From NCBI GenBank assembly GCA_022825505.1, contig JAJDWR010000044.1:2220-66219 (forward strand): a stretch of 64,000 bases of DNA. The letters run 5' to 3'. Position 1 is the stretch's first letter. The number at the start of each line of letters is the position of its first letter. This document shows positions 11,378 to 34,990 of this stretch, one piece after another. The notes under the pieces are model-generated. The model did not search any database. It worked only from the letters and a program-made list of their open reading frames with translations, and was not told where the DNA came from. Source of the stretch: Gammaproteobacteria bacterium. GTDB taxonomy: Bacteria > Pseudomonadota > Gammaproteobacteria > Steroidobacterales > Rariloculaceae. The translations under genes were made by a program, and so were the position numbers.

Positions 11378-11393
11378 TCCCGAGGATCCCACC

Positions 11394-15638: not shown

Positions 15639-16661
15639 TCAGCCCAATGACATGCGCGGCCGCCCCTGCAGGTGGCGGACGCGCTCGAAGACGTCGACGC
15701 CCATCTGTCCCAGCAGGTCGATCATGTCGATGGGGACCCAATTTTCGGCGATCAGGCCGTCTTCGACGCGGTAGAAGTCCATGACCCGCATGCCCACGGA
15801 CCTGCCGGTGGCGGGCATGGCCAGGAATCCGGGGCCCAGGTGCGTCGCCACCACGCTGGGCCAGCCGCCCGTCACTGCGTAGTTGCCGTCCCCGAGCTGG
15901 CCGAAATGATGCTCGACGCGGCGGTCGGGAAAGGCGCGCAGGAACGGGATCTGGTGGTGGGCCCGAAATCCCCGGAGTCCGCGGGTCGTGCCGATGCCGG
16001 ACGGTCCGTACCAGAGGAAGTCGGGCGTCCAGTATCGCTCGTGGTCCATGCTCTCGATGCGCTTGCCATCGAACCGGAGCAATCCGGCGTGCATCAGCCT
16101 GACCAGTCGGAGCGACTCGGCACCACGTGCCGGATCGACGACGTCAGGCAGGACGCCGTCCTGCGTCGCCGGCCCGGGCCAGCGGCCCTCGGCGCCGAGC
16201 GCCGGAGCAATGGGGTAGCAGCCGGCCTGGCGCATCAGGTCGAGCAGGTCGGCAATCATCCAGGTCACCGAAATCCTGCCGTTGACCAACCGATGAACTT
16301 CCCCGTAGCGGATGTGTACGACGCCATGTGTCGGCGGGATGTCGAAAAGGGGTCTGGCGAAAGTGCCCTGAAAGTGACCCATGACCGCGACCAGGTCCCG
16401 GCCGTCGGATTCGCCGGCAATCAGGATCGAATCGCGGCGCTGAAAATCGGAAAGTGCGAATCGCAGCGGACGCCAGAGTGAATTCGCGATCGCGGCGGCG
16501 CCGGTACACTCGTTGACCGGGTGGAAGGCAAACAGGCGGGCGTCGTCCGCATAGACCGTACCGGCCGAATCTTCGAGATCGTCCCCGGAGGCGCGGCACA
16601 GCGCCTGCAGGCGGCGGTGTACACATCGCTTGTTTCGATTGTGCGCCTCAGTCCGCGTCAT
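15639..16661 (-). CDS. Tandem SnoaL-like/NTF2-fold (ester cyclase-like) protein, type A copy 1
   Basis: Two ~150-aa modules, each ending in the ester-cyclase-like pattern (..IPPTHGVVHIRYGEVHRLVNGRISVTWMIADLLDLMRQAG.. and ..MPATGRSVGMRVMDFYRVEDGLIAENWVPIDMIDLLGQMG..). Paralog of 32793..33800. Start moved to Met13 (16661) by alignment with the paralog. Confidence 0.7.
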   Translation of the reverse strand: MTRTEAHNRNKRCVHRRLQALCRASGDDLEDSAGTVYADDARLFAFHPVNECTGAAAIANSLWRPLRFALSDFQRRDSILIAGESDGRDLVAVMGHFQGTFARPLFDIPPTHGVVHIRYGEVHRLVNGRISVTWMIADLLDLMRQAGCYPIAPALGAEGRWPGPATQDGVLPDVVDPARGAESLRLVRLMHAGLLRFDGKRIESMDHERYWTPDFLWYGPSGIGTTRGLRGFRAHHQIPFLRAFPDRRVEHHFGQLGDGNYAVTGGWPSVVATHLGPGFLAMPATGRSVGMRVMDFYRVEDGLIAENWVPIDMIDLLGQMGVDVFERVRHLQGRPRMSLG

Positions 16662-17727
16662 TCGTCCGGTTGCCGTCACCGGCCGCGCGGTGATCAAGGG
16701 AAGAAATCATGAGTGCCGGCTGCGGATCGTCACCGCCACGTACGACATAGGCTTCGACCCGTTCGGCGCCGAAATTACCGAAACTGCGCCGCATCCCGAC
16801 CGGAATGGTCAGCACGTCGCCCGGACCGAGTTCCACCGAATCGACGCCGAGCGACACGTTGAGCGCCCCCCTGTGCATGAGAATGACTTCTTCCTCGCGC
16901 CGGCAGTGCGGCGCGGTTTCCGCACCCGGCAAGGCTGTAAACAGGCGCAGGTTGAATCCGTGCGGCCAGTCGATCTTGCCCGCATCCAGACCGTCCGCCC
17001 CGCCTGCAGACCCGATGATCGGCAACTCCCGAACCGGTTCCGGATCCTCGTCCGGTACCCCCAGCAGTTCGCGCCGCCGGACGATGCAGTCGCCCAGCCG
17101 TTCGGTGGTGAGCCGGTCGAGCCGGGCAACGTCCTCCTCGCTGGTCGGCCGCATGGCGCGCTTGCTGTCCGGAATCTTCTCGCCGCGAGAGGTGTCCACG
17201 AGACTGCCGTCCTCAAGGAGTATCAATCCATGCTCCGCCGCCTGATCGAATACGTAGGGCGCCCAGGTCACCATGCCGGGGTCGTCGCCGCCCAGCACGG
17301 CAAACATGTACCCGACATCGTCGCCGACGTTCTCGAACCCACGGAACACGTGGATTGGGATGGAAATGGTATCCCCGGGACCCACCGTCACTTCGCCGTC
17401 CCCGCAGTCGACGCCGGTGTAGAACGCCCACTGCCCGGAATGGATGATGAACACCTCGGCGGTTTCATGGCTGTGCTGGGAGTTGATGCAACCCGGAGGC
17501 TGGCGGGCGCCGCCGATGTTGAATCCGTGCGGGATGTCGATGTGCACGTACTGATCGGGGTTCTCGGCGACCCCGGGACCGATGATCGTGAAGTTCTCCT
17601 TCTCGGTGCTTCCGGGCGTTCGGGTGTCGATGAACGCGGTAGTGCAGGGCCGCAGATCCCGGTATCGTACCAACCGCTCCGCAAGGAGCGCTGCATGACG
17701 GCTTTCCGACGATATACTCTGGACCAT
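16648..17727 (-). CDS. Bicupin protein (N-terminal cupin with HxHxxxE metal motif)
   Basis: First module has ..NSQHSHETAEVFIIHSG..GPGDTISIPIHVFRGFEN.. Second module has ..APHCRREEEVILMHRG..GPGDVLTIPVGMRRSF.. Start set at ATG 17727 because the track start (TTG 17796) coincides with a promoter -35 and the conserved operator. Confidence 0.7.
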   Translation of the reverse strand: MVQSISSESRHAALLAERLVRYRDLRPCTTAFIDTRTPGSTEKENFTIIGPGVAENPDQYVHIDIPHGFNIGGARQPPGCINSQHSHETAEVFIIHSGQWAFYTGVDCGDGEVTVGPGDTISIPIHVFRGFENVGDDVGYMFAVLGGDDPGMVTWAPYVFDQAAEHGLILLEDGSLVDTSRGEKIPDSKRAMRPTSEEDVARLDRLTTERLGDCIVRRRELLGVPDEDPEPVRELPIIGSAGGADGLDAGKIDWPHGFNLRLFTALPGAETAPHCRREEEVILMHRGALNVSLGVDSVELGPGDVLTIPVGMRRSFGNFGAERVEAYVVRGGDDPQPALMISSLDHRAAGDGNRTNDAD

Positions 17728-17767
17728 ATGGTGAAGTTCACCGCCGCTGGCGACGTTACCGCGACCG

Positions 17768-17796
17768 AATGTACTTCGAATGCAAAACCAATTCAA
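17768..17796 (-). promoter_or_regulatory. Putative sigma70-type promoter (-35 TTGAAT, 17-nt spacer, -10 TACATT) overlapped by the conserved 17-mer TTTGCATTCGAAGTACA (17770-17786, minus orientation)
   Basis: Minus-strand read: TTGAAT-tggttttgcattcgaag-TACATT. The 17-mer is identical to the site at 24169-24185. Lies 43 nt upstream of the bicupin ATG, in the divergent region shared with the SnoaL type B gene. Confidence 0.55.
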
Positions 17797-17840
17797 GGCG
17801 CTCGCCGAGGGTGCCCGCCGCTTTCAAAAAGCGCCATTGA

Positions 17841-18866
17841 GTGGCGTTTGGTCGATTGCGGGAGCAACCCGGTTCGGTTCGGAACGTGACGCGGTATGAC
17901 CCCGACCGGAGATTGGTCGAGTACATTCTCGGGATCACATTCGAGATCTGGGAATGCGGCCACGTCGAACGCATCAACGATTACTATGACGCCGATGCGC
18001 GGATTTTCGCCCTGAGCGGCCTTACCCGCGGTGCCCGGGGAATGATCGAAGGCACCCGGCGGATGCTCGAGGCGTTTCCCGACCGGCTGCTGCTGGCCGA
18101 TGACGTCATCTGGTCCGGCTCTCCGGAGGAGGGCTACTACTCCTCGCACCGGGTGGTCAGCCCCATGACGAACACCGGCCCGTCGGCGTACGGACCGCCT
18201 ACGGGCAAACGGGTCCGCACACTGACCATCGCCGACTGCATCGTCGAGGGCGGCCGGATTACCTGCGAATACCTGCTGCGCGACCACTATTCCCTGGTGC
18301 GGCAACTGGGGGTCGACCCGCGGCGGGCCGCGCGGCAGATGGCGGGCGAACGCGGTCCCGACTGCGAACGGTGGATAGAGGAAGAAATCGCTAGGCTCGC
18401 CCGGCGCAGCGGGCCGGTGCAACGGTTGCCGCTACCGTCGCCCGATGCGGATACACGGGGATTCGCGCGGCGGGTCATCGAAAACCACTGGGCAGGGAAG
18501 AGCGAGGCGATACCCGACGCCGCCTACGCCGGGTACGCTGTGATGCGCCGCGCGCCCGACGCGCTCCACTCGGGAAGGGACGCCATCAAGGCCCACTACG
18601 CTCGCTTGCGCCACGCCATTTCCGGCTGCAATGTGTCGGTCGATCATGTCGCGTGGCAGCCTGTGGATGGCGACGGGATGCGAATTGCCGCCCGGTGGTC
18701 CGTCGCGGGCACGCATACGGGCGACTACCTCGGGATTCCCGCCACGGGCCGGCCCGTCTACGTGCTGGGCGCGACGCACTGGCGAATCGTGGGCGGACGC
18801 ATCGCGGCTGAGTGGACTGTTTTCGACCGGCTGGGGGTGATGTGTCAGATCGTCTCGCGACCCTGA
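17841..18866 (+). CDS. Tandem SnoaL-like/NTF2-fold protein, type B copy 1
   Basis: Two modules (..YILGITFEIWECGHVERINDYY.. and ..AGTHTGDYLGIPATGRPVYVLGATHWRIVGGRIAAEWTVFDRLGVMCQI..). Paralog of 33804..34934. An alternative start at GTG 17886 aligns with the paralog. Confidence 0.7.
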   Translation: MAFGRLREQPGSVRNVTRYDPDRRLVEYILGITFEIWECGHVERINDYYDADARIFALSGLTRGARGMIEGTRRMLEAFPDRLLLADDVIWSGSPEEGYYSSHRVVSPMTNTGPSAYGPPTGKRVRTLTIADCIVEGGRITCEYLLRDHYSLVRQLGVDPRRAARQMAGERGPDCERWIEEEIARLARRSGPVQRLPLPSPDADTRGFARRVIENHWAGKSEAIPDAAYAGYAVMRRAPDALHSGRDAIKAHYARLRHAISGCNVSVDHVAWQPVDGDGMRIAARWSVAGTHTGDYLGIPATGRPVYVLGATHWRIVGGRIAAEWTVFDRLGVMCQIVSRP

Positions 18867-19022
18867 CGGGCGGTCGCATGCACGCGCGGCACTTGCGCGC
18901 TTAACCAAGCCCGCCATCCCTGGCGGGCTTGGATCGGCGTTCGGCGCGCCTGCCATCCATGGCGCCGCGCCGAACACACGACGCGCGCAAGCGCCGCGCG
19001 TGCATGCGACCGCCCGTCAGGG
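18861..19022. repeat. Palindromic intergenic repeat, family copy 2
   Basis: 40-nt arms 18861-18900 and 18983-19022 are reverse complements (ccctgacgggcggtcgcatgcacgcgcggcacttgcgcgc / gcgcgcaagcgccgcgcgtgcatgcgaccgcccgtcaggg). The core has cccgccatccctggcggg and gccatccatggc. The left arm covers the stop codon of the upstream gene. Confidence 0.9.
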
Positions 19023-19044
19023 CTACCACCGGTCTGTCTCCGGG

Positions 19045-20184: not shown

Positions 20185-20242
20185 GGGGTTCCTGGGAGCG
20201 CCTGCGTCGGGCGTGAAAAAAGTCTGCGATCAGGGGGGCGAT

Positions 20243-21289
20243 TCAGTCCAAGTCCGCCGCGAATTCGGCTGAACTGCCCCGGATTCGCTCGCCGGAGAAC
20301 ACGCGCTTCTCCGCCGAGAGTTCGGGATTCCCGATGCGGTCGATCAGCATGGATACGGCGGCTTCGGTCATCCGCTTGACGGGTTGCCTCACCGTGCTCA
20401 GGTCGTACGCCGCGTATCGAGCCGGCCCCGTACCGTCGAATCCGACGATGGACACATCTCCGGGAACGTCGAGACCGTAGGACTCCCGTGCTTCGTCGAT
20501 GCAGCCGATGGCCATGACGTCATTGGCGGCGATCACGGCGTCCGGCGGGCCGCCGCGCCGGTCCACGATCCCGGCGAACGCGGACCGGCCGCTGTCGTAT
20601 CCATAGTCTCCGGTGACGATCGTCACGCCGTCGACGCCTTTTTCCCGGAGTTTCTGCAACGCTCCCGTGGTGCGCTCCGTGCTGACCGACGAGTCCTCGG
20701 GTCCGGAGACGATGGCGAACGTACGGTGGCCGGAGTCGAACAGTTCCGCCACGAGCCAGCGCTCGCCCTCCTCCTGATCGCAGCGCACGGAATTGGAGGG
20801 AATGTCCGGCAGCGACCGGTTGTAGAACACGATGGGAATGTTGGCGTCCTGCACCGTTGCAAGCTGCGCACGGGAGAGCATCGCGGCGGTGACGATGCCG
20901 TCGACCCGAAACTGCAGCACCTGTTCCAGCGTGGAGTCGATATCGCCCTCGCTCTTCAGCGTGAACAGCAGCACCCGGATGCGGTGGTTGGAGAAATGCT
21001 GGGTGAGCTGGACGAGGACTTCAGGGTAGTAAAGGTTGGTCTGCTGGGACATGATCACCGCGACCATGTTGGAACGCTGGGTGATCAGGCCCCTGGCAAT
21101 CGCGTTGGGCCGGTAGCCGAGCTTGCCGGCGGCGGCCATGACGCGCTTGCGCATCTGCTTGGAGGCGCTGGCGCCGTCCTGAAACACCCGCGACACGGCG
21201 GACTGGGAGACGCCCGCGAGTTCGGCAACGTCGTAGGACGTGGCGCGCTTCCACCTCGCCCGGGTGCTTTTCTGTGTCTTTTCGCTCAC
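20243..21289 (-). CDS. LacI-family transcriptional regulator
   Basis: N-terminal HTH ..ATSYDVAELAGVSQSAVSRVFQDGASASKQMRKRVMAAAGKLGYRPNAIARGL.. followed by a periplasmic-binding-protein-like sugar-binding fold, 348 aa. Confidence 0.9.
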   Translation of the reverse strand: MSEKTQKSTRARWKRATSYDVAELAGVSQSAVSRVFQDGASASKQMRKRVMAAAGKLGYRPNAIARGLITQRSNMVAVIMSQQTNLYYPEVLVQLTQHFSNHRIRVLLFTLKSEGDIDSTLEQVLQFRVDGIVTAAMLSRAQLATVQDANIPIVFYNRSLPDIPSNSVRCDQEEGERWLVAELFDSGHRTFAIVSGPEDSSVSTERTTGALQKLREKGVDGVTIVTGDYGYDSGRSAFAGIVDRRGGPPDAVIAANDVMAIGCIDEARESYGLDVPGDVSIVGFDGTGPARYAAYDLSTVRQPVKRMTEAAVSMLIDRIGNPELSAEKRVFSGERIRGSSAEFAADLD

Positions 21290-21357
21290 GCTGACTGTTC
21301 GCCGTTCTCCACGGCCCGTGCCCGATGCGGCTGATGGTAGGCAGTATAGAAGCCGCG

Positions 21358-21391
21358 TGCAATTGCATTCGAATGCGATGCACCGGAGAAT
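21358..21391. promoter_or_regulatory. LacI-type palindromic operator (GCATTCGAATGC, 21365-21376) in the divergent lacI/symporter region, with a possible -35 TTGCAT / -10 GAGAAT promoter
   Basis: TGCAATTGCATTCGAATGCGATGCA contains a perfect 12-bp palindrome centred on CG, fitting the TGnnAnnCGnnTnnCA LacI-family pattern. It shares TTGCATTCGAA with the 17-mer sites. It sits 75 nt from the lacI start and 83 nt from the symporter start. Confidence 0.55.
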
Positions 21392-21459
21392 CGTGCGCTG
21401 GCCGAAGGCTGCAATGCCGGAACGCGGGGCAGGCGGCAGCGCTCACAATCGGGAGTCAC

Positions 21460-23070
21460 ATGGGCACATTCGGGACGCTGAACTGGGCGATTCTCATTGC
21501 CTACGTGCTGCTCAACCTGCTGCTCGGCTTCGTCCTGAGCAAGCGGATCGCCACCGCCGAGGATTTCTACCTGGGCCGGCGTACGACGCCGTGGTGGGCC
21601 ATCGGCATATCGGTCATTGCCACCTACGTCAGCGCGCTGTCGTTCCTGGGCGGCCCCGCGTGGTCCTATTCCGACAGCCTGGCGGTCATCGCGATCCACC
21701 TGAACTACCCCATCGTCGTCTTCATCGTGGTGACGTATTTCCTGCCGTTCTTCTTCAACAGCGGCGTTGCGTCGATTTATGAGTACATGGAGCGGCGCTT
21801 CGGCGCGACCTCCCGCAGCGTTATTTCCGGGGTGTTCCTGGTTTCACAGGCGCTGACCTCGGCTGCGATCCTCTACGCCACGTCCCTCGTCATCCAGTTC
21901 ATCACCGGGGTCGACGTCGTGACGGCCATCGTCGCGGTCACCATCATCGCGCTGATCTACACGATGATGGGCGGCATCACCGCGGTGATCTGGACCGACG
22001 TGATCCAGGCCGCGGTCCTGTTCGTCGGGGCCTTCATCGTCTTCTTCGCCCTGCTGGGCGAAATGCCTGCGCCGGTGGGCGAAGTCCTCGCCGACCTCAA
22101 GGCCCAGGGCAAGACGAACCCCCTGGACTTCTCCCTCGACTGGAGCGTCGAGGCGACGGTGTGGTCGGGAATCATCGCCATGACGATCTTCCACGTCACC
22201 GTCTACGGCGCCAATCAGATGATGGTGCAGCGCACGCTGGCGGCCAGGAACATCGGCGATGCCAAGAAATCCTTCCTGCTGATGGGGTTCGGCGCGTTCT
22301 TCATCTACTTCCTGTTCTTCCTGCTGGGCATCCTGTTCTACGGCTATTACGAGGGAAGGGAGTTCGAGAACGGCAACACCATCATCCTGGAATTCGTCGC
22401 CGATTACGGGATGCCGGGCCTCATGGGCATCATCGCCGCCGCCATCGTGGCGGCGTCCATGTCGTCGCTGGACTCGTCGTTCAATTCGCTGGCGACGATT
22501 TCCACCGTGGATTTCTACGAGAAGTACTACAGGCCCGGCCAATCGCCCGAACATTATCTGAGGATCACGCGGGGCTTCACCGTGGTCTGGGCGCTGCTCA
22601 TCATCGTTCCCGCGATCGTCTATTCCCAGAGCGAAGGCTCGATTCTGCAGACGCTGTCGCGGATCGGTTCCTACTTCGTAGGCGCCAAGCTCAGCATGTA
22701 CGGGCTCGGATTCTTCTCCAAACAGACCACGGAACGGGGCCTGCTGGTGGGCGTGGCGGTGGGATTCGCGGTGATCTGGTACGTGGCGGTGCAGACCGAC
22801 ATCGCCTGGCCCTGGTATTGCCTGATCGGCGGTGCCTCGAATATCGTTATCTCGCTGGTGGCCAGCCGGCTGATCGACGGACGCCAGGAGGAATGGTCCG
22901 AGTACTCGATCGTGGGCCAGCAGACGGCGTTCCGGGAGCGGGGGCTGTCCGAACAGGACGGCGGTTGGTACCTGGTTCCCGGCCGGGTGGATAGAATCAG
23001 CTACCTGTTACCGGGATTCTTCGCGCTGACGATCGTGTTCCTGTTGCTGTTCGAGCAATTGATTCCATGA
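21460..23070 (+). CDS. Sodium:solute symporter (SSS) family transporter, copy 1
   Basis: ATG 21460 (GGGAG 4 nt upstream) inside ORF 21325..23070. 536 aa, polytopic. SSS-type N-terminus MGTFGTLNWAILIAYVLLN..GRRTTPWWAIGISVIATYVSALSFLGGP.. Confidence 0.85.
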   Translation: MGTFGTLNWAILIAYVLLNLLLGFVLSKRIATAEDFYLGRRTTPWWAIGISVIATYVSALSFLGGPAWSYSDSLAVIAIHLNYPIVVFIVVTYFLPFFFNSGVASIYEYMERRFGATSRSVISGVFLVSQALTSAAILYATSLVIQFITGVDVVTAIVAVTIIALIYTMMGGITAVIWTDVIQAAVLFVGAFIVFFALLGEMPAPVGEVLADLKAQGKTNPLDFSLDWSVEATVWSGIIAMTIFHVTVYGANQMMVQRTLAARNIGDAKKSFLLMGFGAFFIYFLFFLLGILFYGYYEGREFENGNTIILEFVADYGMPGLMGIIAAAIVAASMSSLDSSFNSLATISTVDFYEKYYRPGQSPEHYLRITRGFTVVWALLIIVPAIVYSQSEGSILQTLSRIGSYFVGAKLSMYGLGFFSKQTTERGLLVGVAVGFAVIWYVAVQTDIAWPWYCLIGGASNIVISLVASRLIDGRQEEWSEYSIVGQQTAFRERGLSEQDGGWYLVPGRVDRISYLLPGFFALTIVFLLLFEQLIP

Positions 23071-24104
23071 AGCGGTTGACCGCACTCGCCCTGGCCTGGT
23101 ACCTGCCGGCGGCCGCCACGGCACTGCCCGCGCCCTTGTCCATCGACGCGCTGCGCGAAACCGATTTCTCCGCCAGCCTGCAGTTCGAACGCGAGCTGGA
23201 TGGTGGACCCGGTTACACCGCCTACCTTGTGTCGTACCCGTCCTCCGGCCTGACGGTCTTCTCGATGGTAGCGGTCCCGATGGGTGAACGCCCCGCTGCC
23301 GGGTTTCCGGTGATCGTGGCCAATCACGGTTTCCACCCGGACCCTCCCCGGTACGGCTTTACCGCGGACGGCGTGGATTCCAGGCCGGGCGACTACTACC
23401 GCCCGATACCGGAGCTGTACGCGCAGCATGGATTCCTGGTCATCATGCCCGACTACCGGGGCCATAACGCGTCGGAGGGGGTGGAGTACACGGACGGTTT
23501 CCTGGCGACTGGCTACTACTCCGAGGACGTGCTCGCGCTGCTCTCGGGCCTTGCGGATATCAAAGAGGCCGATACCGGCAACGTTTTCATGTGGGGGCAC
23601 TCCCTGGGCGCGGAAGTCTCGTTGCGGGCCCTGCTCGCAACCGATCGGGTCGGGGGCGCGGCGCTATGGTCCGGCGTCGGCGGCGAGATCTGGGACCAGG
23701 CCTACTACTACCAGCGTTACGACGACCGGTTCGCCTACGACGGCAGCGACCTGGAAAACTCGCGAATCGAAGAACTCCGCCGGGACATGGCGGCACTCGA
23801 CGAGCCCTACGACTGGACCACCCGCGAGCCGCTGCGCTACCTGAACTATCTGCGGGCGTCCATCGTGATTCACCACGCTGTCGGCGACACCGGTGCGCCC
23901 TACCACTGGTCGGAGCGTCTGGCGAAGGAACTCTATCTGCTCGGTCACCCGTACCGGTTCCATAGCTACCCCGGCCCCGACCATTTCTTCAAGGACGAAA
24001 CGCTGACGGAGGCGATTGAGCGGGACGTCGAGTATTTTCGCTCACTGATTCGGCCCGCTGACCTGGAAGCGCAGCCTGAATTGAATTCGCAGTCTGACCG
24101 CTGA
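23067..24104 (+). CDS. Secreted alpha/beta-hydrolase (S9/dienelactone-hydrolase-like serine hydrolase)
   Basis: Signal peptide MKRLTALALAWYLPAAATA. Nucleophile elbow GHSLG, later Asp (HHAVGDTG) and His (GPDHFF). The ATG overlaps the symporter stop (ATGA). Confidence 0.7.
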   Translation: MKRLTALALAWYLPAAATALPAPLSIDALRETDFSASLQFERELDGGPGYTAYLVSYPSSGLTVFSMVAVPMGERPAAGFPVIVANHGFHPDPPRYGFTADGVDSRPGDYYRPIPELYAQHGFLVIMPDYRGHNASEGVEYTDGFLATGYYSEDVLALLSGLADIKEADTGNVFMWGHSLGAEVSLRALLATDRVGGAALWSGVGGEIWDQAYYYQRYDDRFAYDGSDLENSRIEELRRDMAALDEPYDWTTREPLRYLNYLRASIVIHHAVGDTGAPYHWSERLAKELYLLGHPYRFHSYPGPDHFFKDETLTEAIERDVEYFRSLIRPADLEAQPELNSQSDR

Positions 24105-24158: not shown

Positions 24159-24195
24159 TTGACATTGATTTGCATTCGAAGTACAAACGAATGCA
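24159..24195 (+). promoter_or_regulatory. Putative promoter (-35 TTGACA 24159-24164, 17-nt spacer, -10 TACAAA 24182-24187) overlapped by the 17-mer TTTGCATTCGAAGTACA (24169-24185) and the inverted repeat TGCATTCG-N9-CGAATGCA (24171-24195)
   Basis: Read directly from the sequence. The 17-mer is identical to the bicupin promoter site. The inverted 8-mers are exact reverse complements. Lies 61-97 nt upstream of the TBDR ATG 24256. Confidence 0.6.
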
Positions 24196-26808: not shown

Positions 26809-26861
26809 GTCACATTTGCTAATCACGGCCGATCGGAGGCGCGTCCGCCGCTCGAAATCCT

Positions 26862-26896
26862 GAAAGCCTCGTCAGTGCGGGGCTTTCCTGTTTCTG
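26862..26896 (+). terminator. Possible rho-independent terminator after the TBDR gene
   Basis: GAAAGCC(tc)-gtcagtgc-(gg)GGCTTTC hairpin followed by cTGTTTCTg. Confidence 0.4.
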
Positions 26897-26917
26897 CCGG
26901 GGGCGCTACGAAACCGC

Positions 26918-28789
26918 ATGGTACGAGACCCTACGACGATGCTGAGAGCCGGATTCGATGCACAGCAGAAGGGTCATGTTCGGCAAGCCGAGCGCCTGTA
27001 TCGGCAGGTGCTGGAATCCGATTCCGGAAACAGGCACGCGCTGAACCTGCTCGGTGCGCTTTGTGCCAACACGGAACGGCCGAAGGAAGCGGTGGATTTC
27101 ATTACCCGGGCGCTGGGGATCGACAATGCCGATCCCCAGGCACACGCCAACATCGGACTGGCCTACAAGGACCTGGGGATGGCGTACAAGGCCGCCGATC
27201 ACCTGGCAGAATCGGTCAGGCTGGATCCGTCCAGACCGGTGGTGTTCAACAATTTCGGCAACGTACTGCGATTGCTCGACCAACCCGGAAAGGCGGTCCG
27301 CGCGTACGATCGTGCGCTGCGGCTGGACAGCCGTTTCGCCGAGTGCTGGAGCAACCTCGCGGCTGCGCTCAACGAATCCGGTCAGCAAGAGGCCGGTTTG
27401 CGGGCAGCGGCGAGGGCGCTTGAACTGAGTCCGGATCTGGCCCAGGCGCACAACCACATCGGAGACATTCGCCTTCAACAGGCCCGGTACGACGATGCGG
27501 TGGAAAGCTACCTGCAAGCCGCCAGCCTCAGTCCCGGGAGCACGGTCGCCCTGATCAATCTGGCCAAGGCCTATCGGGACAGGGACGAGCCGGAGGAGGC
27601 GCTGACCGCATTGCGCAGGGTGTTGGACATCGAGCCCGAAAATCCGGAGGCAATGCACGTGATGGGCGTGCTGCTCGAACAGATGGGGGATCGGGAGGGC
27701 GCGGCCGAACAGTTCAAGTCGGCGATCCGCATCGCTCCCGAAATGGCGGTATCGCACTATTACCTGGCTCAGATCAAGGGACGCGGAAGCTCGGAACAAG
27801 AATTCCGGGCGCTTCTCTCGCATTGGCAACGGGAGGATACGACGCCGAACAACCGAATGTACCTGGCATTCGCGATCGCGCGAATTCACGAGCAGCGGGG
27901 CAATTTCAATGAGGCGTACGAGTTCCTGGCCGCGGCGAACAGGGCGAAAGCTGCCGTAAAGCCCTACGACGATGCCGACTCGGCTCGTTACATTGACGCC
28001 ATTGCCGAAGCGACAGAAAAAGCAGTCGAACGATTCGGGCGTTCGATGGGGCATCGGGACGACCGGCCGGTATTCGTGGTGGGCATGCCCCGCTCCGGTA
28101 CCAGCCTGACGGAGCAGATCCTGGCGAGCCACTCGGAAGTCGCAGGCGCGGGGGAACTGAGTTTCGCTTTCGACACGGTCCGGCGCGTACGCAAGATCAC
28201 CGGCAAGAAGTTTCCCCGGGACATGGAAAAACTGTCGGCGGAACAGTTCCGGGAGCTGGGCGCCTACTACATGTCCCGCCATTCCGGCGAATACCTGTCG
28301 TCGCGATACGTCGTCGACAAGTCGCCGCTGAATTTCCAGTACGTCGGACCGCTTGCGCTCATGCTGCCGGGTGCGCGCTTTGTCCACTGCCATCGCCATC
28401 CGGCCGCCAATTGTCTCGCGATTCACCGCATTCCCTTCGATCTGCGGCAGACGTATGCGCACAGCCTCGAGGCACTGGGCAAGTACTACACTCGCTACTG
28501 GAACCTGATGCAGCAGTGGCACGAGCTGTTCCCCGGACGCATACTCGATGTGCGCTACGAAGACACGGTCACCGATATCGAGGGGCAGGCCCGCCGCATG
28601 CTGGATTTCCTTGAGTTGCGGTTCGAAGAACGCGTATTGAGCTTTTATGAGACGAAACGCCTGGTCAAGACGCCGAGCGCCAGTCAGGTGCGGGAGCCGA
28701 TCTACAGGGACGCCATGGTCCTGTGGAAAAACTACGAGAAACACCTCGGACCGCTGATGGAGAATCTGAAAGTGCCCATACCGGGCTGA
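26918..28789 (+). CDS. TPR-repeat-containing sulfotransferase family protein
   Basis: N-terminal ~380 aa of TPR-like repeats. C-terminal domain with PAPS 5'-phosphosulfate-binding loop GMPRSGTSL and ..RYEDTV.. region. 623 aa. Confidence 0.85.
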   Translation: MVRDPTTMLRAGFDAQQKGHVRQAERLYRQVLESDSGNRHALNLLGALCANTERPKEAVDFITRALGIDNADPQAHANIGLAYKDLGMAYKAADHLAESVRLDPSRPVVFNNFGNVLRLLDQPGKAVRAYDRALRLDSRFAECWSNLAAALNESGQQEAGLRAAARALELSPDLAQAHNHIGDIRLQQARYDDAVESYLQAASLSPGSTVALINLAKAYRDRDEPEEALTALRRVLDIEPENPEAMHVMGVLLEQMGDREGAAEQFKSAIRIAPEMAVSHYYLAQIKGRGSSEQEFRALLSHWQREDTTPNNRMYLAFAIARIHEQRGNFNEAYEFLAAANRAKAAVKPYDDADSARYIDAIAEATEKAVERFGRSMGHRDDRPVFVVGMPRSGTSLTEQILASHSEVAGAGELSFAFDTVRRVRKITGKKFPRDMEKLSAEQFRELGAYYMSRHSGEYLSSRYVVDKSPLNFQYVGPLALMLPGARFVHCHRHPAANCLAIHRIPFDLRQTYAHSLEALGKYYTRYWNLMQQWHELFPGRILDVRYEDTVTDIEGQARRMLDFLELRFEERVLSFYETKRLVKTPSASQVREPIYRDAMVLWKNYEKHLGPLMENLKVPIPG

Positions 28790-28801
28790 ACGTCGATCCA
28801 T

Positions 28802-31009
28802 ATGAGCATTACGCGTCGAAAATTTCTGGAGTCCTCTGCAGCAGTCACGGCCGCGGCGCTTGGCAGCGGTTGCCAGACGGTTGCAACGCCTGCAACCGGC
28901 GACTCGGCCGGCGGGCGCCGCCCGAATCCGGACCGTAAACCGAACATTCTGATCGCGGTACTCGATGACGTCGGTTTCGGCGACCTCGGGTGCTATGGGT
29001 CGGATGTTCCCACCCCATGCATCGACCGTCTGGCCGCCAATGGCGTCCGCTACAACAACTTTCATGTGACGTCACTGTGTGCGCCGACCCGGGCAAGCCT
29101 GCTGACCGGTGTCAATGCTCACGCCGCCGGTGTGGGAAACATCGCCGAATGGGGGCGGGACCATCCCGGATACCGTGGCTGGATTCGCGACGATGTACGC
29201 ACACTGGCCGAAATTCTGGGCCCGGCAGGCTACCAAAACTACGCAGTGGGCAAGTGGCACTTGTCGACCGTGACGGGCCGCAACGCCACCGGCCCTTTCG
29301 ATCAGTGGCCCACGGGCAGGGGATTCGATCACTGGTACGGCTTTCACGGCGCGGCGGCCGATCACTGGCACCCGGAACTGTTCCGCAACCGCAGGGCGAC
29401 GTATCCGGACAAGACCGCAGGCTACCATCTGACCACGGACCTCGTGGATCAATCCATGGCCTTCATCCGGGATCACCTGGTCGCATCGGCCGATGTACCG
29501 TTCTTCCTGTATCTCTCGTTCGGCGCCTGTCACTTTCCCTACCATGTCCCTGCCGACTACATGGCAAGGCATCGCGGCGTTTACGACGCCGGATGGGATG
29601 CGATACGCGAGCAGAGATTCGCTCGCCAGCAGGCGATGGGGATCGTGCCGGCCAATGCGGAACTTGCCCCGCGCGACGAACTCGTGCCCGCCTGGCGCGA
29701 TATTACCGACGACGAGAGGCGGTTCGGTGCGCGAACGCAGGAAGCGTATGCGGGGTTCCTCCACCATACGGACGATCAACTGCAACGCCTCGTGGACTTC
29801 CTGGAGCGAAGCGGGCAGCTTGACGACACCATCCTCATGGTCCTGTCCGACAACGGCGCCGGCTCCTGGGGACCTCCCGCCGGCCGGCTGGACGTTCACC
29901 GAGTCGTCTACATCGAACCGGAGACGATCGGGGAGCTGATCGCCAATATCGACAAGGTCGGCAGCGAACGGAGTCAGCCGAGCTACGGTCCCGGTTGGGC
30001 ACAGGCCAGCAATACGCCTCTCAAGTTCTACAAGGGCGACACGTACGAAGGCGGCATCCGCGCGCCGCTGGTGGTCCATTGGCCCGGCGGCGACCTGCCG
30101 GGAAACGAGATCCTCACGCAATACCATCACGTGACGGACATCGTGCCGACGCTCCTGGAACTGGCCGGTCAACCGGCGGAGCCCCTGGACGGCATCAGCC
30201 TCGCCTATACGCTGGATTCGCCGAACGAACCGACGCGCAAGGAGATCCAATACTACGAGACCGCCGGAGACCGCGCGATCTGGATGGACGGATGGAAAGC
30301 CGTCACTCAGCATGTGTCCGATACGCCCTTCGAGGAAGACGAATGGGCGCTCTACCATTCACGGGACGACTTTTCCGAAATCCACGACAGGGCGGCGGAG
30401 TTTCCCGCCCGTGTCGAGGAAATGGTTGCCGCCTGGAGGTGGGAAGCGGAGCGCAACAATGTGCTTCCGCTGGTGGACGATGTGCTGTCGCTCGAGGCGG
30501 GCGTCGCGCCGCAGCCGCAATCCCGCTACGTGTTCTACCCCGATACCACCCGCATCGACCGCCGAAGCGCGCCGGACATCTTCAGCCACGACTACACGAT
30601 TCTGGCCGAGGTCGAGATCGTCAGCGGCCCCGCCAACGGGGTGTTGCTGGCATCCGGCGACAGCATGGCAGGGTACGAATTGTTGATGATCGACGGGTAC
30701 CTTGAATTCACCTATGTGTATACGCGCGGTCAGCGCTACTCGGTGAGGTCCGGGGATCGCGTTCCCGACGGCCGGCACGAACTGGGATTGCGCGGCCGAA
30801 AGACTTCCGCAACCTCCGGGCATGTCGAACTGTTTGTCGACGGCAACTCGGCCGGGTCCGTGGATATTCCCGGGATGTGGGAAGTCAGGAGCCTGAACTC
30901 AGGGGTGCGCTGCGGCGAGAATCGCGGCGCACCGATCAGCCACTCCTACACGGGTTCGTTCAGGTTCGACCAGATTCTCGAGCGGCTCACCGTCACTTTG
31001 GACATTTGA
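28802..31009 (+). CDS. Arylsulfatase-family (formylglycine-dependent) sulfatase with Tat signal and C-terminal LamG/jelly-roll-like domain
   Basis: Twin-arginine signal MSITRRKFLESSAAV..ALGSGC (possible lipobox). Sulfatase signature ..SLCAPTRASLLTG.. (C-x-P-x-R) after ..ILIAVLDDVGFGDLGCYG.. 735 aa. Confidence 0.9.
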   Translation: MSITRRKFLESSAAVTAAALGSGCQTVATPATGDSAGGRRPNPDRKPNILIAVLDDVGFGDLGCYGSDVPTPCIDRLAANGVRYNNFHVTSLCAPTRASLLTGVNAHAAGVGNIAEWGRDHPGYRGWIRDDVRTLAEILGPAGYQNYAVGKWHLSTVTGRNATGPFDQWPTGRGFDHWYGFHGAAADHWHPELFRNRRATYPDKTAGYHLTTDLVDQSMAFIRDHLVASADVPFFLYLSFGACHFPYHVPADYMARHRGVYDAGWDAIREQRFARQQAMGIVPANAELAPRDELVPAWRDITDDERRFGARTQEAYAGFLHHTDDQLQRLVDFLERSGQLDDTILMVLSDNGAGSWGPPAGRLDVHRVVYIEPETIGELIANIDKVGSERSQPSYGPGWAQASNTPLKFYKGDTYEGGIRAPLVVHWPGGDLPGNEILTQYHHVTDIVPTLLELAGQPAEPLDGISLAYTLDSPNEPTRKEIQYYETAGDRAIWMDGWKAVTQHVSDTPFEEDEWALYHSRDDFSEIHDRAAEFPARVEEMVAAWRWEAERNNVLPLVDDVLSLEAGVAPQPQSRYVFYPDTTRIDRRSAPDIFSHDYTILAEVEIVSGPANGVLLASGDSMAGYELLMIDGYLEFTYVYTRGQRYSVRSGDRVPDGRHELGLRGRKTSATSGHVELFVDGNSAGSVDIPGMWEVRSLNSGVRCGENRGAPISHSYTGSFRFDQILERLTVTLDI

Positions 31010-31020
31010 TGGAGCACTAG

Positions 31021-32628: not shown

Positions 32629-32648
32629 CTTGTTGGTTTCCGTGGGGC

Positions 32649-32799
32649 GTCGTGAGGTTGTGTGCGGACAGCCCTCGCGGGCTTAACTTCACCCGCCATC
32701 CCTGGCCGGCTCAAATCGGCGCGCGGCGCTCCTGGCCGTCCATGGCCCAGCGCCGCGCGCACGACGCCCGCGAGGGCTGTCCGCACACAACCTCACGAC
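32649..32799. repeat. Palindromic intergenic repeat, family copy 3
   Basis: 33-nt arms gtcgtgaggttgtgtgcggacagccctcgcggg (32649-32681) and cccgcgagggctgtccgcacacaacctcacgac (32767-32799) are exact reverse complements. The core is the conserved cttaac..cccgccatccctggccgg..ggcgctcctggccgtccatggcc..cacgac. Confidence 0.9.
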
Positions 32800-33800
32800 T
32801 TTGTCGGGCTGATCGAAGTGCAGCGGTCCAGGGCGTCTACGCCGAGCAGGCGGAGGTAGTGAAGTAGGTCGATGAAGATCCAGTTTTCGGCCAGCTTGTC
32901 GCCGTCGCGGCGGTAAATGTCGACGACGCGCATCTCCGTGGGCCTGCCGGACGCGGGCAAACCGAGAAAGCCTTCGCCCTGTTTCATGTTCATGTTGGGC
33001 CAGCCGAACCAGCCGCCGTAGGTGCCTTCTGCGTGCTCCAGCACGTGGCCGTTGAAGCGGATGTCTACCAGGCCGCGGCGAAACGGCTGCTGGTGCTGAA
33101 GCTGGTACCGTTCGATGGTACAGGTGGCGCCGATTCCCCAGGGGCCGAACCAGATCATGTCTTCGTGCCAGGTCCTGCGCAGCATGTCGGCGGGCGATTC
33201 CATGCTGTCGCCGACAAGGTCGTCGCACATCCGAAGGATGAGGTCCAGGGTCTTGCGGGATTCGGCCTCGTCCTGGGGGTCGAAAAGCACGCCGTCGGCG
33301 GTTCGCGGCCCCGGATTGACGATTGCGGCGCCGGTCTGTACGGGCAGCGGTTGTAGTCCCGCCTGCATCATTACGCTGATGATGTCCACCCAGAGCGCCG
33401 ACTCGGCGATCCGTCCGTCTTCGATGCGATGGAACTCGCAGTAGGGCAGGAGCACGATCTTGCCGGTGGGAGGGATTCCCAGCCAGGGGTTGTCCATGAG
33501 GCCCATGAACTTCCCCATGCTGGTGACCCAGAGTGCGCCGTCGATGAAGTTCGGGCCGGCGAAGAAGATGTCCTGGCGTCGCTGCATGGCATTCAACGAC
33601 TTGCGCAACGGCTGCCAGACCGTGGCCGCGACGGCATCGGCGCCGTCAAGCTCGTTGAACGGGTGGACGCCGCGAAAATGGTAGTTGGCGGCGGCGTAAT
33701 GCCCGATCGCGGCGGCGATTCCGTCCGGCGGGGCGGCTTCGGTCGCCCGGAAGTAGTCCAGTACGATGGCCTTGGCCGTTTGAATCTTGTCGGTACGCAC
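32793..33800 (-). CDS. Tandem SnoaL-like/NTF2-fold protein, type A copy 2
   Basis: 335 aa. Paralog of 15639..16661 (..IPPTGKIVLLPYCEFHRIEDGRIAESALWVDIISVMMQAG.. and ..LPASGRPTEMRVVDIYRRDGDKLAENWIFIDLLHYLRLLG..). The stop codon lies inside repeat copy 3. Confidence 0.7.
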   Translation of the reverse strand: MRTDKIQTAKAIVLDYFRATEAAPPDGIAAAIGHYAAANYHFRGVHPFNELDGADAVAATVWQPLRKSLNAMQRRQDIFFAGPNFIDGALWVTSMGKFMGLMDNPWLGIPPTGKIVLLPYCEFHRIEDGRIAESALWVDIISVMMQAGLQPLPVQTGAAIVNPGPRTADGVLFDPQDEAESRKTLDLILRMCDDLVGDSMESPADMLRRTWHEDMIWFGPWGIGATCTIERYQLQHQQPFRRGLVDIRFNGHVLEHAEGTYGGWFGWPNMNMKQGEGFLGLPASGRPTEMRVVDIYRRDGDKLAENWIFIDLLHYLRLLGVDALDRCTSISPTKS

Positions 33801-33803
33801 GGC

Positions 33804-34934
33804 TCAGGCGGCCAACTGCATCATCAGATCCAGTTCGTTGAAGAGCAGCCATTCGCGGACGATCCTGCCGCCGGCGATCTCATGCTGGGTAATGCCCCAG
33901 ATCTGTATTGGCTTGCCCGTCGGTTCGCCATAGAGTCCCGGGCCGGTATGCGTGCCCTCGGCGCTCCACCGCTCCGACGTCAGGTAGCCGTCGACGTCGT
34001 TGCCCATCCAGTAGACTTCGTCCACCTGGACTTCCAGGTCGGGAAACGCTCCGAGAATCGAATCGAGAAACTCCCGGTAGTTGCCCGCTCCGCAGAACTT
34101 GCGGTCGGTGGGGCCTTCGAACCCGAACCCGGTGGCGTAGGTTGCCGCCAGCGCCTCGAGGTTGCGGCGATTCCAGAGTTCGTCGATGGTGTGCCGGGCC
34201 ACTCGGTCGATGTCGAAGCCATCGATCGGCTGGGCGACGTGGATGGGCCGCTCAGGCCGGGCCGAACTCCGCAGGCTGTCCCAGACCGCCGCATCCCGCG
34301 GCCAGCCGGCGGGTGGCGAAGCGGCCAGCGCGGGAACGATGTCCCCCAGATTGTGACCGAGTTGCTGAAGCATGCTCGAGTTGTTGTAGAGCACGTGTTC
34401 GAGAAAGATCTCGTTCTCCAGCGCCACGCAGTTGGCGATGACGAGTACGTCGATGTACCGGTTGGTGGCAGGGCCGTAGCGGCTGTCGCCGTCGTTGGTG
34501 CCGCGAATTATGGTGCGGTGCGACGTGTGGTAGCCGATCTCGTCGTCACCCGCCCACACGATTTCGTCGGCGATGAGCTTGATGTCGGAAAAGGCGCCGG
34601 TGGTGTGATGGGTATCGTCGATGATCTTCCGGCAGCCGTGCTGCAGGCCGTAGTCGTCGAACACCTGCGACGAGTCGGAGTAGGTGTCTGCGATGTACTC
34701 GACTTCGCGGTCTTCCCAGATTCTGTACGTGATGCGGACGATGTAATCGATGATGTTCCGATAGGTCTCCTCGAAACCTCGCATGGACTGCATCGGCCCG
34801 TAATCATCCGGTATGCGTGTTTCCTGCCGCGTGCCGCGTCGGGTGTATTTCTGCAGCGAAATCGAATAGCCGGTCGGCATGTGTTCGCGGGAAAGAGGGC
34901 GGGCGACTCGCGGACGTTCCCTGTCGTCAGTCAT
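33804..34934 (-). CDS. Tandem SnoaL-like/NTF2-fold protein, type B copy 2
   Basis: Paralog of 17841..18866 (..YIVRITYRIWEDREVEYIADTY.., ..SAEGTHTGPGLYGEPTGKPIQIWGITQHEIAGGRIVREWLLFNELDLMMQL..). Start uncertain: ATG 34934, 34880, 34793 or 34784. A 3-nt gap separates it from the type A gene downstream. Confidence 0.7.
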   Translation of the reverse strand: MTDDRERPRVARPLSREHMPTGYSISLQKYTRRGTRQETRIPDDYGPMQSMRGFEETYRNIIDYIVRITYRIWEDREVEYIADTYSDSSQVFDDYGLQHGCRKIIDDTHHTTGAFSDIKLIADEIVWAGDDEIGYHTSHRTIIRGTNDGDSRYGPATNRYIDVLVIANCVALENEIFLEHVLYNNSSMLQQLGHNLGDIVPALAASPPAGWPRDAAVWDSLRSSARPERPIHVAQPIDGFDIDRVARHTIDELWNRRNLEALAATYATGFGFEGPTDRKFCGAGNYREFLDSILGAFPDLEVQVDEVYWMGNDVDGYLTSERWSAEGTHTGPGLYGEPTGKPIQIWGITQHEIAGGRIVREWLLFNELDLMMQLAA

Positions 34935-34960
34935 TGAATTGGCGCTATCCAGTGATTATT

Positions 34961-34990
34961 TTTGCATTGGAAGTACATTTTGCCGAATGA
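34961..34990. promoter_or_regulatory. Third copy of the 17-mer (TTTGCATTGGAAGTACA, 1 mismatch) with a distal CCGAATGA half-site
   Basis: 34961-34977 matches the sites at 17770-17786 and 24169-24185 at 16 of 17 positions. Lies in the divergent region between SnoaL type B copy 2 and trpS. Confidence 0.45.

Follow-up and report, generated by a model that had tools for sequence, protein, structure and literature searches.

A candidate LacI-controlled locus for scavenging a small anionic metabolite in a Rariloculaceae gammaproteobacterium, and its relatives across Proteobacteria

Results and Discussion

A 64,000-nucleotide (nt) stretch of a Rariloculaceae genome (GenBank assembly GCA_022825505.1, contig JAJDWR010000044.1; hereafter the window, within which all positions are given) has ~64% G+C and carries a locus of 13 genes at 15639–34990. 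At a probability of roughly 0.5, we interpret this locus as a single LacI-repressed regulon for the scavenging and partial breakdown of a small, hydrophilic, anionic metabolite resembling a sugar or cyclitol. The substrate would be a small anionic, O-methylated polyhydroxy compound, often bearing amino-acid or sulfate groups. Judged from its genes, the locus provides an outside-to-inside route comprising an outer-membrane receptor, two putative periplasmic trimming enzymes (a sulfatase and a hydrolase of S9/DLH type) and a sodium symporter of the SiaT/anion branch. Its core, which consists of the bicupin, MetE-like, SnoaL-A, SnoaL-B, LacI and symporter genes, is conserved as a set, along with the same operator, in 586 species genomes at the least. 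We found no description of the gene set in curated family models or in the full-text literature, where few subscription journals are covered and a recent report may be missed; an earlier suggestion that the system is undescribed agrees with this result.

Gene Content and Packing

Genes were picked by third-position GC (GC3-filtered open reading frames, ORFs) and then assigned by Pfam and NCBIfam profile searches. The 13 genes sit between ggt (13610–15331) and trpS (35192–36193), as follows (aa, amino acids):

15639–16661, minus strand: SnoaL-A, 340 aa, two SnoaL/NTF2 domains (Pfam SnoaL, two stretches)
16648–17727, minus strand: bicupin, 359 aa, Pfam Cupin_2 twice
17841–18866, plus strand: SnoaL-B, two-domain SnoaL/NTF2 protein (Pfam); start uncertain, relatives 323–328 aa
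19045–20184, minus strand: MetE-like protein, 379 aa, Pfam Meth_synt_2
20243–21289, minus strand: LacI-family repressor, Pfam LacI and Peripla_BP
21460–23070, plus strand: SSS1, sodium:solute symporter, 536 aa (also 536 aa in an independent gene call), Pfam SSF
23067–24104, plus strand: exported alpha/beta serine hydrolase (S9/DLH-like), Pfam Peptidase_S9, Abhydrolase and DLH
24256–26808, plus strand: TonB-dependent outer-membrane receptor, Pfam Plug and TonB_dep_Rec
26939–28789, plus strand: cytoplasmic tetratricopeptide-repeat (TPR) sulfotransferase without signal peptide, Pfam Sulfotransfer_3
28802–31009, plus strand: formylglycine sulfatase, exported by twin-arginine translocation (Tat), Pfam Sulfatase, 204 bits
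31021–32628, plus strand: SSS2, paralogue of SSS1, with an in-frame TAG at 31018–31020 after an ATG at 31009
32793–33800, minus strand: SnoaL-A2, a second A-type two-domain SnoaL protein (Pfam)
33804–34934, minus strand: SnoaL-B2, a second B-type two-domain SnoaL protein (Pfam), 3 nt upstream of SnoaL-A2

This gene set is the one listed in a first-pass annotation of the window, and all 13 genes were recovered. Its tight packing is likewise evident: the SSS1 stop and hydrolase start overlap as ATGA, and gaps of 12 nt and 3 nt separate the sulfotransferase from the sulfatase and SnoaL-A2 from SnoaL-B2, respectively. The SnoaL-A ORF reaches back to a TTG at 16697, with the ATG at 16661 as its likely start. 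Four protein motifs reported earlier (TRRKFL and CAPTR in the sulfatase, GHSLG in the hydrolase and QHSHETAE in the bicupin) are all present. As the annotation had stated, we found no integrase, no tRNA and no glycoside hydrolase; Pfam gave neither a glycoside hydrolase nor a polysaccharide lyase domain in any of the 13 locus genes, and an Rfam search of the window gave no match. As to the accompanying claim that composition is unbroken, GC3 is only mildly lower across the receptor, sulfotransferase and sulfatase genes (~0.76 vs. 0.80–0.88 elsewhere).

A Shared Predicted Operator Probably Links the Transcription Units

Four promoter regions of the locus carry an operator consensus, TGCATnCGnATGCA, or a half-site variant of it. 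One such variant is the 17-mer TGTACTTCGAATGCAAA, previously noted in three promoter regions, which occurs at 17770, 24169 and 34961 with 0, 0 and 1 mismatches (3 sites in 64 kb vs. 0.05 expected); those three regions stand, and we found a fourth operator in the lacI/SSS1 spacer. The predicted operators are:

17770–17786, plus strand: O1, divergent bicupin/SnoaL-B promoter region; 17-mer containing the half-site TTGCATTCGAA
21364–21377, plus strand: O2, 14-bp near-perfect palindrome TGCATTCGAATGCG in the lacI/SSS1 spacer
24169–24185, minus strand: O3, upstream of the TonB-dependent receptor; 17-mer
34961–34977, minus strand: O4, upstream of SnoaL-B2 and abutting a −10-like hexamer; 17-mer

The half-site TTGCATTCGAA is common to the O2 palindrome and all three 17-mers. 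O3 lies between a TTGACA hexamer and the receptor start codon, with a second half-site, CGAATGCA, 9 nt downstream. The layout seen here, TG....CG....CA, is the one that LacI-family operators usually take, and the 17-mer is a variant of the predicted LacI operator.

The palindrome recurs in relatives of the locus. We fetched 87 related loci (80 genome loci, of which 52 are full loci, the bicupin gene having 8 kb or more of sequence on each side). Allowing at most 2 mismatches, 55/88 sequences (the 87 related loci plus the window) contain it, with 90 sites in total vs. 2–9 in shuffled sequence, an enrichment of 10-fold or more. In the 80 genome loci, 68/82 palindrome sites fall in the 300 bp upstream of a recognised cluster gene, and a single site is located inside one. 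The LacI protein itself is 76% identical to that of a related cluster (L005). Because the locus promoters share an operator, and the same palindrome stands upstream of cluster genes in relatives, the five transcription units very probably constitute one LacI regulon. The annotation had proposed a single regulon, and the operator in four promoter regions, conserved in related loci, argues for it.

A further operator half-site with one mismatch (TTGCATTCGAG) is found at 40262–40272, ~150 nt upstream of a MiaB-like radical SAM gene, and is probably a chance match.

The Core Cluster Is Conserved across Bacterial Classes

A species scan, using one genome per species, listed 600 pattern matches, of which 586 were confirmed as relatives. 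The co-occurrence of the SnoaL A/B genes with the bicupin, MetE-like and symporter genes, which the first-pass annotation had left as a check, is thus borne out across at least 586 species genomes. The closest among the matches listed is a Candidatus Rariloculaceae chromosome, at 94% identity and with its genes in the same order as here. More than 6000 bicupin homologues appear in the protein collection; many are 65–70% identical and come from Woeseiaceae and other marine Gammaproteobacteria. Core genes are 65–80% identical between bacterial orders, and the order of the genes is kept in Gamma-, Alpha- and Betaproteobacteria as well as in one Flavobacteriales metagenome-assembled genome.

The usual arrangement has four units: hydrolase–SSS–SDR; LacI–small alpha/beta hydrolase–MetE-like–HpcH aldolase; Amidohydro_2–SnoaL-B; and bicupin–HisD-like–SnoaL-A, after which a sulfatase and a receptor often come. 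Gene frequencies in the 52 full loci, counted from tblastn hits, are:

LacI: 81%
HisD-like (HpsN-like): 81%
MetE-like: 75%
SnoaL-B: 75%
SnoaL-A: 69%
HpcH: 58%
SDR: 56%
Receptor: 54%
SSS: 48%
Small hydrolase: 48%
Amidohydro_2: 44%
Exported hydrolase: 33%
Sulfatase: 15%
TPR-sulfotransferase: 12%

Five downstream enzymes common in relatives (HisD-like, SDR, small hydrolase, HpcH and Amidohydro_2) are found nowhere in the 64-kb window. By this comparison the window holds a shortened copy of the cluster that would cover only the upper part of the pathway, with the downstream enzymes either elsewhere in the genome or missing. Seven of the 52 full loci share its form, with MetE-like and SnoaL genes and without a HisD-like gene.

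A relative at 84% identity (L001) keeps only the MetE-like, SnoaL-B, bicupin and SnoaL-A genes beside ggt. At positions 2395–7309 of the L001 locus, in place of the block running from LacI to SnoaL-B2, it carries ParDE and HigB/HTH toxin-antitoxin pairs, CrcB and a gene for a 613-aa arylsulfotransferase-like protein. Since toxin-antitoxin genes take its place there, the LacI-to-SnoaL-B2 block is accessory and occupies a variable spot, consistent with the earlier description of an accessory regulon.

Cultured carriers show further versions of the cluster, and in their plasmid and chromid records the cluster proteins have generic names only. Marinovum algicola pMaD9 combines a CUT1 ABC transporter, ester cyclases, HisD-like, LacI, cupin and MetE-like proteins, a hydrolase and an RraA-family protein; Sinorhizobium medicae has an M20 hydrolase, CUT1 ABC, SDR, LacI, cupin, RraA, amidase, hydrolase and ester cyclase; Roseibium aggregatum has a TRAP transporter, HisD-like, SDR, LacI, cupin, hydrolase and RraA; and a Klebsiella michiganensis IncF plasmid has LacI, HisD-like, SDR, MFS, hydrolase, aldolase and cupin.

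The existence of a common function has itself to be weighed. The genes could be a chance neighbourhood of accessory genes or a secondary-metabolite (polyketide cyclase) cluster; Pfam names such as SnoaL polyketide cyclase suggest biosynthesis, and the sulfatase and sulfotransferase are only loosely associated with the rest. We regard this as extremely unlikely given the operator shared by four promoters, strong synteny across classes and the absence of any polyketide synthase (PKS) or nonribosomal peptide synthetase (NRPS) at the locus. Uptake genes and periplasmic hydrolases point to catabolism instead, as the first-pass annotation had also concluded in calling the locus catabolic and uptake-oriented.

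Uptake Proteins Suggest an Organic Anion

Among solved structures SSS1, which is 81% identical to its L005 orthologue, comes closest to the sialic-acid transporter SiaT and next to the anion carriers NIS, SMVT and SMCT. Elsewhere SSS is replaced by CUT1 ABC, TRAP or MFS transporters. The closeness of SSS1 to SiaT and anion carriers, and the TRAP systems that stand in for SSS in some lineages, make an organic anion the probable substrate; a sugar-like one is suggested by the LacI regulator and the CUT1 ABC systems.

SSS2 is 56–58% identical to SSS1 and begins ATG GAG CAC TAG, its ATG overlapping the sulfatase stop (TGATG) and its TAG (31018–31020) coming three codons past that ATG. Downstream of the TAG the frame keeps perfect homology to SSS1, with no ATG, GTG or TTG until 31159 (46 codons on). 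The same TAG is present in an independent metagenome assembly (L089, 99.97% identical) and is therefore not a read error of one sequence. Either the nonsense mutation is a fresh one or translation begins at a non-canonical codon (ATC at 31021), and one of the two symporters looks inactivated. The earlier claim of a complete uptake-to-cytoplasm route holds in that all uptake genes are present; it does not extend to the pathway, which is incomplete at the locus, or, probably, to SSS2.

The alpha/beta hydrolase has a WGHSLG motif, a signal-like N-terminus marks it as exported, and its orthologues follow the SSS gene in 22–26 related loci. The sulfatase carries a Tat motif, the C-x-P-x-R site and a C-terminal extension of ~180 aa. 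Its best solved relative is the Pseudomonas aeruginosa arylsulfatase 1HDH (PAS/AtsA; 263 bits over residues 45–550), and carbohydrate sulfatases score at most 129 bits. Sulfatase orthologues at ~55% identity occur in 9–11 related loci, and the TPR-sulfotransferase follows the receptor gene in several. No gene for the formylglycine-generating FGE or anSME was noted in the window, where no search was aimed at them. By their frequencies, the sulfatase and TPR-sulfotransferase are occasional add-ons to the cluster. The previous proposal of a sulfated small molecule rather than a polysaccharide is thus upheld in part, by the arylsulfatase-like sulfatase and the absence of glycoside hydrolases, and weakened by the presence of sulfatase and sulfotransferase genes in only 12–15% of related loci.

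Three Core Enzyme Families

The four SnoaL proteins, earlier described as a tandem of four, are in fact two A/B pairs at opposite ends of the locus, each protein having two NTF2 domains. SnoaL-A and A2 are 36% identical, and SnoaL-B and B2 34% identical over 322 aa. Orthologues in other lineages are closer (57% for SnoaL-A in the Woeseiaceae-type cluster, 55% for SnoaL-B in L005, and 54% between SnoaL-A2 and an extra A-type copy in L002). These tandem-domain proteins are 335–376 aa long and reach 25 bits against the NCBIfam SnoaL_meth_ester model, whose cut-off is 200; no PKS lies near their genes.

Extra SnoaL-A paralogues are also found in two Woeseiaceae loci (L002, 14044–17279, and L014), beside a glyoxalase-fold gene, a pterin-binding methyltransferase and a B12-binding corrinoid protein, which hints at corrinoid-dependent demethylation linked to the same pathway.

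The N-terminal cupin of the bicupin carries QHSHETAE (H-x-H-x3-E) plus a distal His; its residues H85, H87, E91 and H126, a 3His-1Glu site, are invariant in a homologue alignment (A1). The C-terminal cupin reads H-x-R-x-EEE and lacks a full metal site. An AlphaFold model (pTM 0.79) searched with Foldseek placed oxalate decarboxylase, MncA, salicylate dioxygenase and quercetinase as the closest solved folds, at a modelled TM of ~0.5 and 11–16% identity; these are generic bicupins, with no close relative among solved structures. A profile match to quercetinase YxaG (E = 3.5e-4) covers the C-terminal cupin. The enzyme could be a dioxygenase, or an isomerase like KduI.

The MetE-like protein is 75–79% identical to Woeseiaceae orthologues and falls below the cut-off of all NCBIfam methionine-synthase models (best 105 bits vs. 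406). Aligned to the MetE structures 3ppf, 1xpg and 1ypx, its GS (HVGSLPR), DGE, LDSP and HiC segments match homocysteine/zinc motifs, and the Cys of its DCGF segment is aligned in 1ypx. The zinc ligands (His, Cys, Glu, Cys) and the homocysteine-binding Ser, Glu and Asp motifs are thus retained. We infer from these motifs that it is a single-barrel zinc enzyme, predicted to transfer an alkyl group, most simply methyl, from the substrate to homocysteine or a similar thiol. NCBIfam offers no equivalog for any core protein.

Downstream Enzymes of the Wider Cluster Point to Pyruvate Release

The HisD-like protein of the wider cluster is closest to HpsN, the 3-dehydrogenase of 2,3-dihydroxypropane-1-sulfonate (DHPS), with 400 bits vs. 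267 for HisD and ~50% identity. This likeness would fit a sulfonate pathway (DHPS, sulfoquinovose or cysteinolate type) with new C–S cleavage by cluster enzymes, in which the SDR could equal HpsO; CUT1 ABC transporters, too, serve in sulfoquinovosyl-glycerol uptake. HpsN enzymes share the signature G-R-Y-A/S-H, whose His (His126) binds the sulfonate (PMC11382572). The HpsN-like proteins of related clusters keep Lys353 and read G-K-Y-P-M at the signature, with His126 lost, and the window has no HpsN-like gene at all. Nothing like SuyAB, Xsc, CuyA or a TauE-type sulfite exporter appears among the conserved families of the 80 loci, in a general family comparison in which no search was aimed at them. 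We therefore set aside the DHPS/sulfonate idea that the HpsN similarity had raised, as very unlikely, on account of the lost sulfonate motif and of desulfonation genes going unnoticed in that comparison. Because the sulfonate-binding His is replaced, the HpsN-like enzyme would act on an anion–CH2–C(OH)–CH2OH unit other than a sulfonate.

HpcH scores best against HpaI and GarL, and the RraA-family protein shows weak LigK similarity (26–35 bits vs. a cut-off of 304). The two aldolases replace each other across lineages, and both occur in Woeseiaceae. HpcH and RraA families are class II pyruvate aldolases acting on 4-hydroxy-2-oxo acids, so the full pathway would by analogy end in pyruvate release. 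Of the other downstream proteins, the small hydrolase is similar to 3-oxoadipate enol-lactonase, and the Amidohydro_2 protein falls within the LigI/fuconolactonase group.

Nitrogen-related genes recur inside or beside related clusters, namely an amidase, an M20 peptidase, two M19 dipeptidases and an L-serine dehydratase. The dehydratase occurs in five loci of four families and directly follows the bicupin, in the same direction, in two. Because such genes recur at the clusters, the substrate seems to carry amino-acid groups in several lineages.

Proposed Pathway and Candidate Substrates

In the proposed working of the regulon, sulfatase and serine hydrolase would trim substituents in the periplasm and SSS1 would take up the resulting anion. 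SnoaL A and B proteins would then remove substituents from the core molecule, the MetE-like enzyme would move a methyl group to homocysteine, and the bicupin would open or isomerise the enolic core. In complete clusters, the HpsN-like enzyme (CH2OH to COOH) and the SDR would oxidise the product, one or two lactonase-like hydrolases would follow, and an HpcH or RraA aldolase would release pyruvate.

Mycosporine-like amino acids and gadusol/4-deoxygadusol, including their sulfate esters, are our leading substrate candidates, because among substrate families considered this one uses most of the cluster parts. Put as a pathway, the cluster family would degrade mycosporine-like amino acids, fungal mycosporines and gadusol, with the window supplying uptake and the upper half and the sulfatase serving sulfated forms; we offer this only tentatively, with the odds against it. 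Such compounds combine an acidic enol and an enol methyl ether with a C(OH)(CH2OH) centre, and they bear one or two arms that are amino acids or amino alcohols (serine among them). Bacteria are reported to turn shinorine and porphyra-334 into mycosporine-glycine and 4-deoxygadusol, and corals contain sulfate esters of mycosporine-type compounds (PMC3083659). The two hydrolytic steps from shinorine through mycosporine-glycine to 4-deoxygadusol fit two SnoaL types: tandem-NTF2 A and B proteins would hydrolyse the two arms. The MetE-like enzyme would pass the enol-ether methyl to homocysteine, and the bicupin would open the demethylated cyclic reductone to 4-hydroxy-4-hydroxymethyl-2-oxoadipate. 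Oxidation of the ring hydroxymethyl by the HpsN-like enzyme would give an acid like 4-carboxy-4-hydroxy-2-oxoadipate (CHA), the known CHA aldolase substrate, which HpcH or RraA would split into pyruvate and oxaloacetate; starting from gadusol, the products would be pyruvate and 3-oxo-tetronate.

The last product fits a Vibrio pelagius plasmid (NZ_CP090616.1; L097, 6294–11581) on which a bicupin 31% identical to ours, HpcH and an alpha/beta hydrolase run co-directionally with otnK, otnC and otnI, preceded by a TRAP transporter and a DeoR regulator. The otnC is bona fide (298 bits vs. a cut-off of 250), and the linkage suggests a C4 oxo-tetronate as aldolase product.

The same plasmid speaks for the main rival candidates, 3-deoxy-2-ulosonic or ulosaric sugar acids of Kdo, Dha or DAH type, which may be O-methylated, O-acetylated or sulfated and would stem from lipopolysaccharide, the scales of green algae or pectic rhamnogalacturonan II (RG-II). 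Here the bicupin and SDR would act like KduI and KduD, the HpsN-like enzyme would oxidise the terminal CH2OH, and HpcH would cleave the 4-hydroxy-2-oxo acid to pyruvate and a C4 acid. This possibility, though doubtful, draws on the join of bicupin, HpcH and hydrolase to oxo-tetronate genes including OtnC, on the SiaT likeness of SSS1 together with the TRAP and CUT1 transporters and the LacI regulator, on the HpaI and GarL scores of HpcH, and on an SDR–bicupin adjacency resembling kduD–kduI. It also draws on GH95, GH127 and NPCBM genes beside the cluster in Novosphingobium, the only carrier with GH95 and GH127 there; strain EMRT-2, besides these two, adds an amidase and a second HisD-like gene. 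Sugar acids, however, leave the amidase, M19/M20 peptidases, L-serine dehydratase, homocysteine-type MetE-like enzyme and tandem NTF2 proteins unaccounted for, and no kinase or dehydratase typical of sugar-acid routes is conserved among the 80 loci. An alkyl methyl ether is also a poor methyl donor for a zinc-thiolate enzyme.

An aromatic substrate is unlikely as well. A sulfated or methoxylated aromatic or phenolic compound would be degraded through a lower pathway like that of gallate/protocatechuate-4,5, with ring cleavage by the bicupin, a lactonase or hydratase and then a CHA-type aldolase. The arylsulfatase-like sulfatase, the enol-lactonase-like small hydrolase, the LigI/fuconolactonase-group Amidohydro_2 protein, the weakly LigK-like RraA and the corrinoid methyltransferase parts beside the cluster in 2 loci are in keeping with it. 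So is plasmid pSWIT02 of Rhizorhabdus wittichii RW1 (L093, 9084–13576), where the run SDR–alpha/beta hydrolase–HpcH–cupin has an IS4 transposase gene on either side, lies among aromatic genes and looks like a mobile four-gene unit. Yet aromatic compounds are not usually handled by a LacI regulator with CUT1, TRAP or SiaT-like transporters, the conserved genes include no hydroxylase or Rieske oxygenase, and HpsN-like alcohol oxidation and the peptidases are left over.

Three further ideas were rejected. A classical 6-deoxy-sugar oxidative route (SDR, fuconolactonase-like, HpcH) has no conserved dehydratase, and the window lacks its genes. Cleavage of ascorbate or ascorbate-2-sulfate, prompted by the arylsulfatase and the oxo-tetronate link, needs neither a pyruvate aldolase nor peptidases. 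Betaine-lipid head groups, prompted by the methyl donor, glycerol unit and esterases, fit LacI, bicupin and aldolase poorly.

Several observations weigh against the scavenging regulon as we have drawn it. True sugars are the more typical context for LacI regulators and CUT1 transporters, and we know of no precedent for an enol ether passing its methyl group to homocysteine. The fold matches of the bicupin are generic (TM ~0.5), and the enzyme could be a KduI-like isomerase instead of a dioxygenase. The L-serine dehydratase shares a divergent promoter with SnoaL-B in 2/5 loci, a moderate link only. Receptors present in 54% of full related loci are only ~29% identical to that of the window, sulfatase and TPR-sulfotransferase genes are rare, SSS2 has a premature stop, and the five downstream enzymes are missing from the window.

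Neighbouring Features of the Window

A ribosomal-protein/secY/rpoA operon occupies positions 1–12000. On the other side of the locus (region 34991–35191), the longest ORF of trpS reaches 67 codons beyond the N terminus given by independent gene calls (333 aa).

A GC-rich repeat of ~110–175 nt occurs at 18856–19030, 32641–32805, 42808–42930 and 53164–53307, with a partial copy at 11912–12008 and a further copy in L001 (15409–15503). It lies between convergent genes, two copies being inside the locus, folds as one long hairpin (−149 kcal/mol, z = −15.8) and has no match in Rfam. Its features resemble those of a REP- or MITE-like intergenic repeat, one belonging to this lineage.

Significance

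Hundreds of bacterial species from the sea, fresh water and soil carry the cluster, its core genes also occur among thousands of metagenomic proteins, and every core enzyme carries only a generic name. Among the carriers are Woeseiaceae, which came here mostly from marine sediment metagenomes, and also Halieaceae, roseobacters, sphingomonads and rhizobia. Identifying the substrate would give functions to four large uncharacterised families (the bicupin clade, the MetE-like clade, the tandem-NTF2 proteins and the HpsN-like clade) and would probably also show a turnover route of a widespread dissolved organic compound. Mycosporines and gadusol are the main natural sunscreens of aquatic life; if they are the substrate, the cluster would be their bacterial degradation pathway. 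The conserved repressor operator and the cultured carriers with plasmid-borne clusters make the question directly testable.

Comparison with Known Systems

At the level of single proteins, the core enzymes depart from their named relatives. The SnoaL cyclase is a single NTF2 domain of ~140 aa encoded in a PKS cluster, whereas the SnoaL proteins of the window are tandem-domain proteins of 335–376 aa that score far below the cut-off. The bicupin shares the two-cupin fold and the N-terminal H-x-H-x3-E...H ligands with quercetinase YxaG, OxdC, gentisate and salicylate 1,2-dioxygenases and KduI, but is 11–16% identical to any solved structure and has no metal site in its second cupin. With MetE and the "core" MetE-like proteins, the MetE-like protein shares the TIM-barrel family, zinc ligands and homocysteine motifs; unlike MetE (~750 aa, two barrels), it has one barrel and 379 aa, lacks the folate-binding N-terminal domain and lies under a LacI operator.

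Among pathways, the hps clusters for DHPS (HpsN, HpsO and HpsP with SuyAB, Xsc or CuyA; PMC11382572) resemble the wider cluster in that its HpsN-like gene adjoins an SDR gene, as HpsO does. They differ in that the window itself has neither HpsN-like nor SDR genes and the HpsN-like proteins of its relatives lack the sulfonate motif. The lower protocatechuate-4,5/gallate pathway uses the LigI lactonase, LigJ hydratase and LigK/GalC CHA aldolase. Its logic of a ring-opened product, an Amidohydro_2 lactonase or hydratase and a class II aldolase yielding pyruvate is shared by the wider cluster, whose Roseobacter and Sinorhizobium versions carry RraA-type aldolases. The cluster differs in LigK similarity far below the cut-off, a bicupin that is not of LigAB type, and a regulator and transporters of sugar type.

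The closest architectural parallel we describe is with the carbohydrate utilisation (CUT) loci with TonB-dependent receptors known from Xanthomonas and Caulobacter, of which the sux sucrose locus has a LacI-type regulator, SuxR, the receptor SuxA, the inner-membrane SuxC and the enzyme SuxB. The two have in common a LacI repressor with a palindromic, CG-centred operator, a TonB-dependent receptor, an inner-membrane secondary transporter and divergent catabolic operons. In contrast to CUT loci, the window locus has no glycoside hydrolase, its enzymes belong to uncharacterised families, and trimming would fall to a periplasmic sulfatase and serine hydrolase. In architecture the locus is a LacI/TonB-receptor catabolic one, probably equipped with new enzymology.

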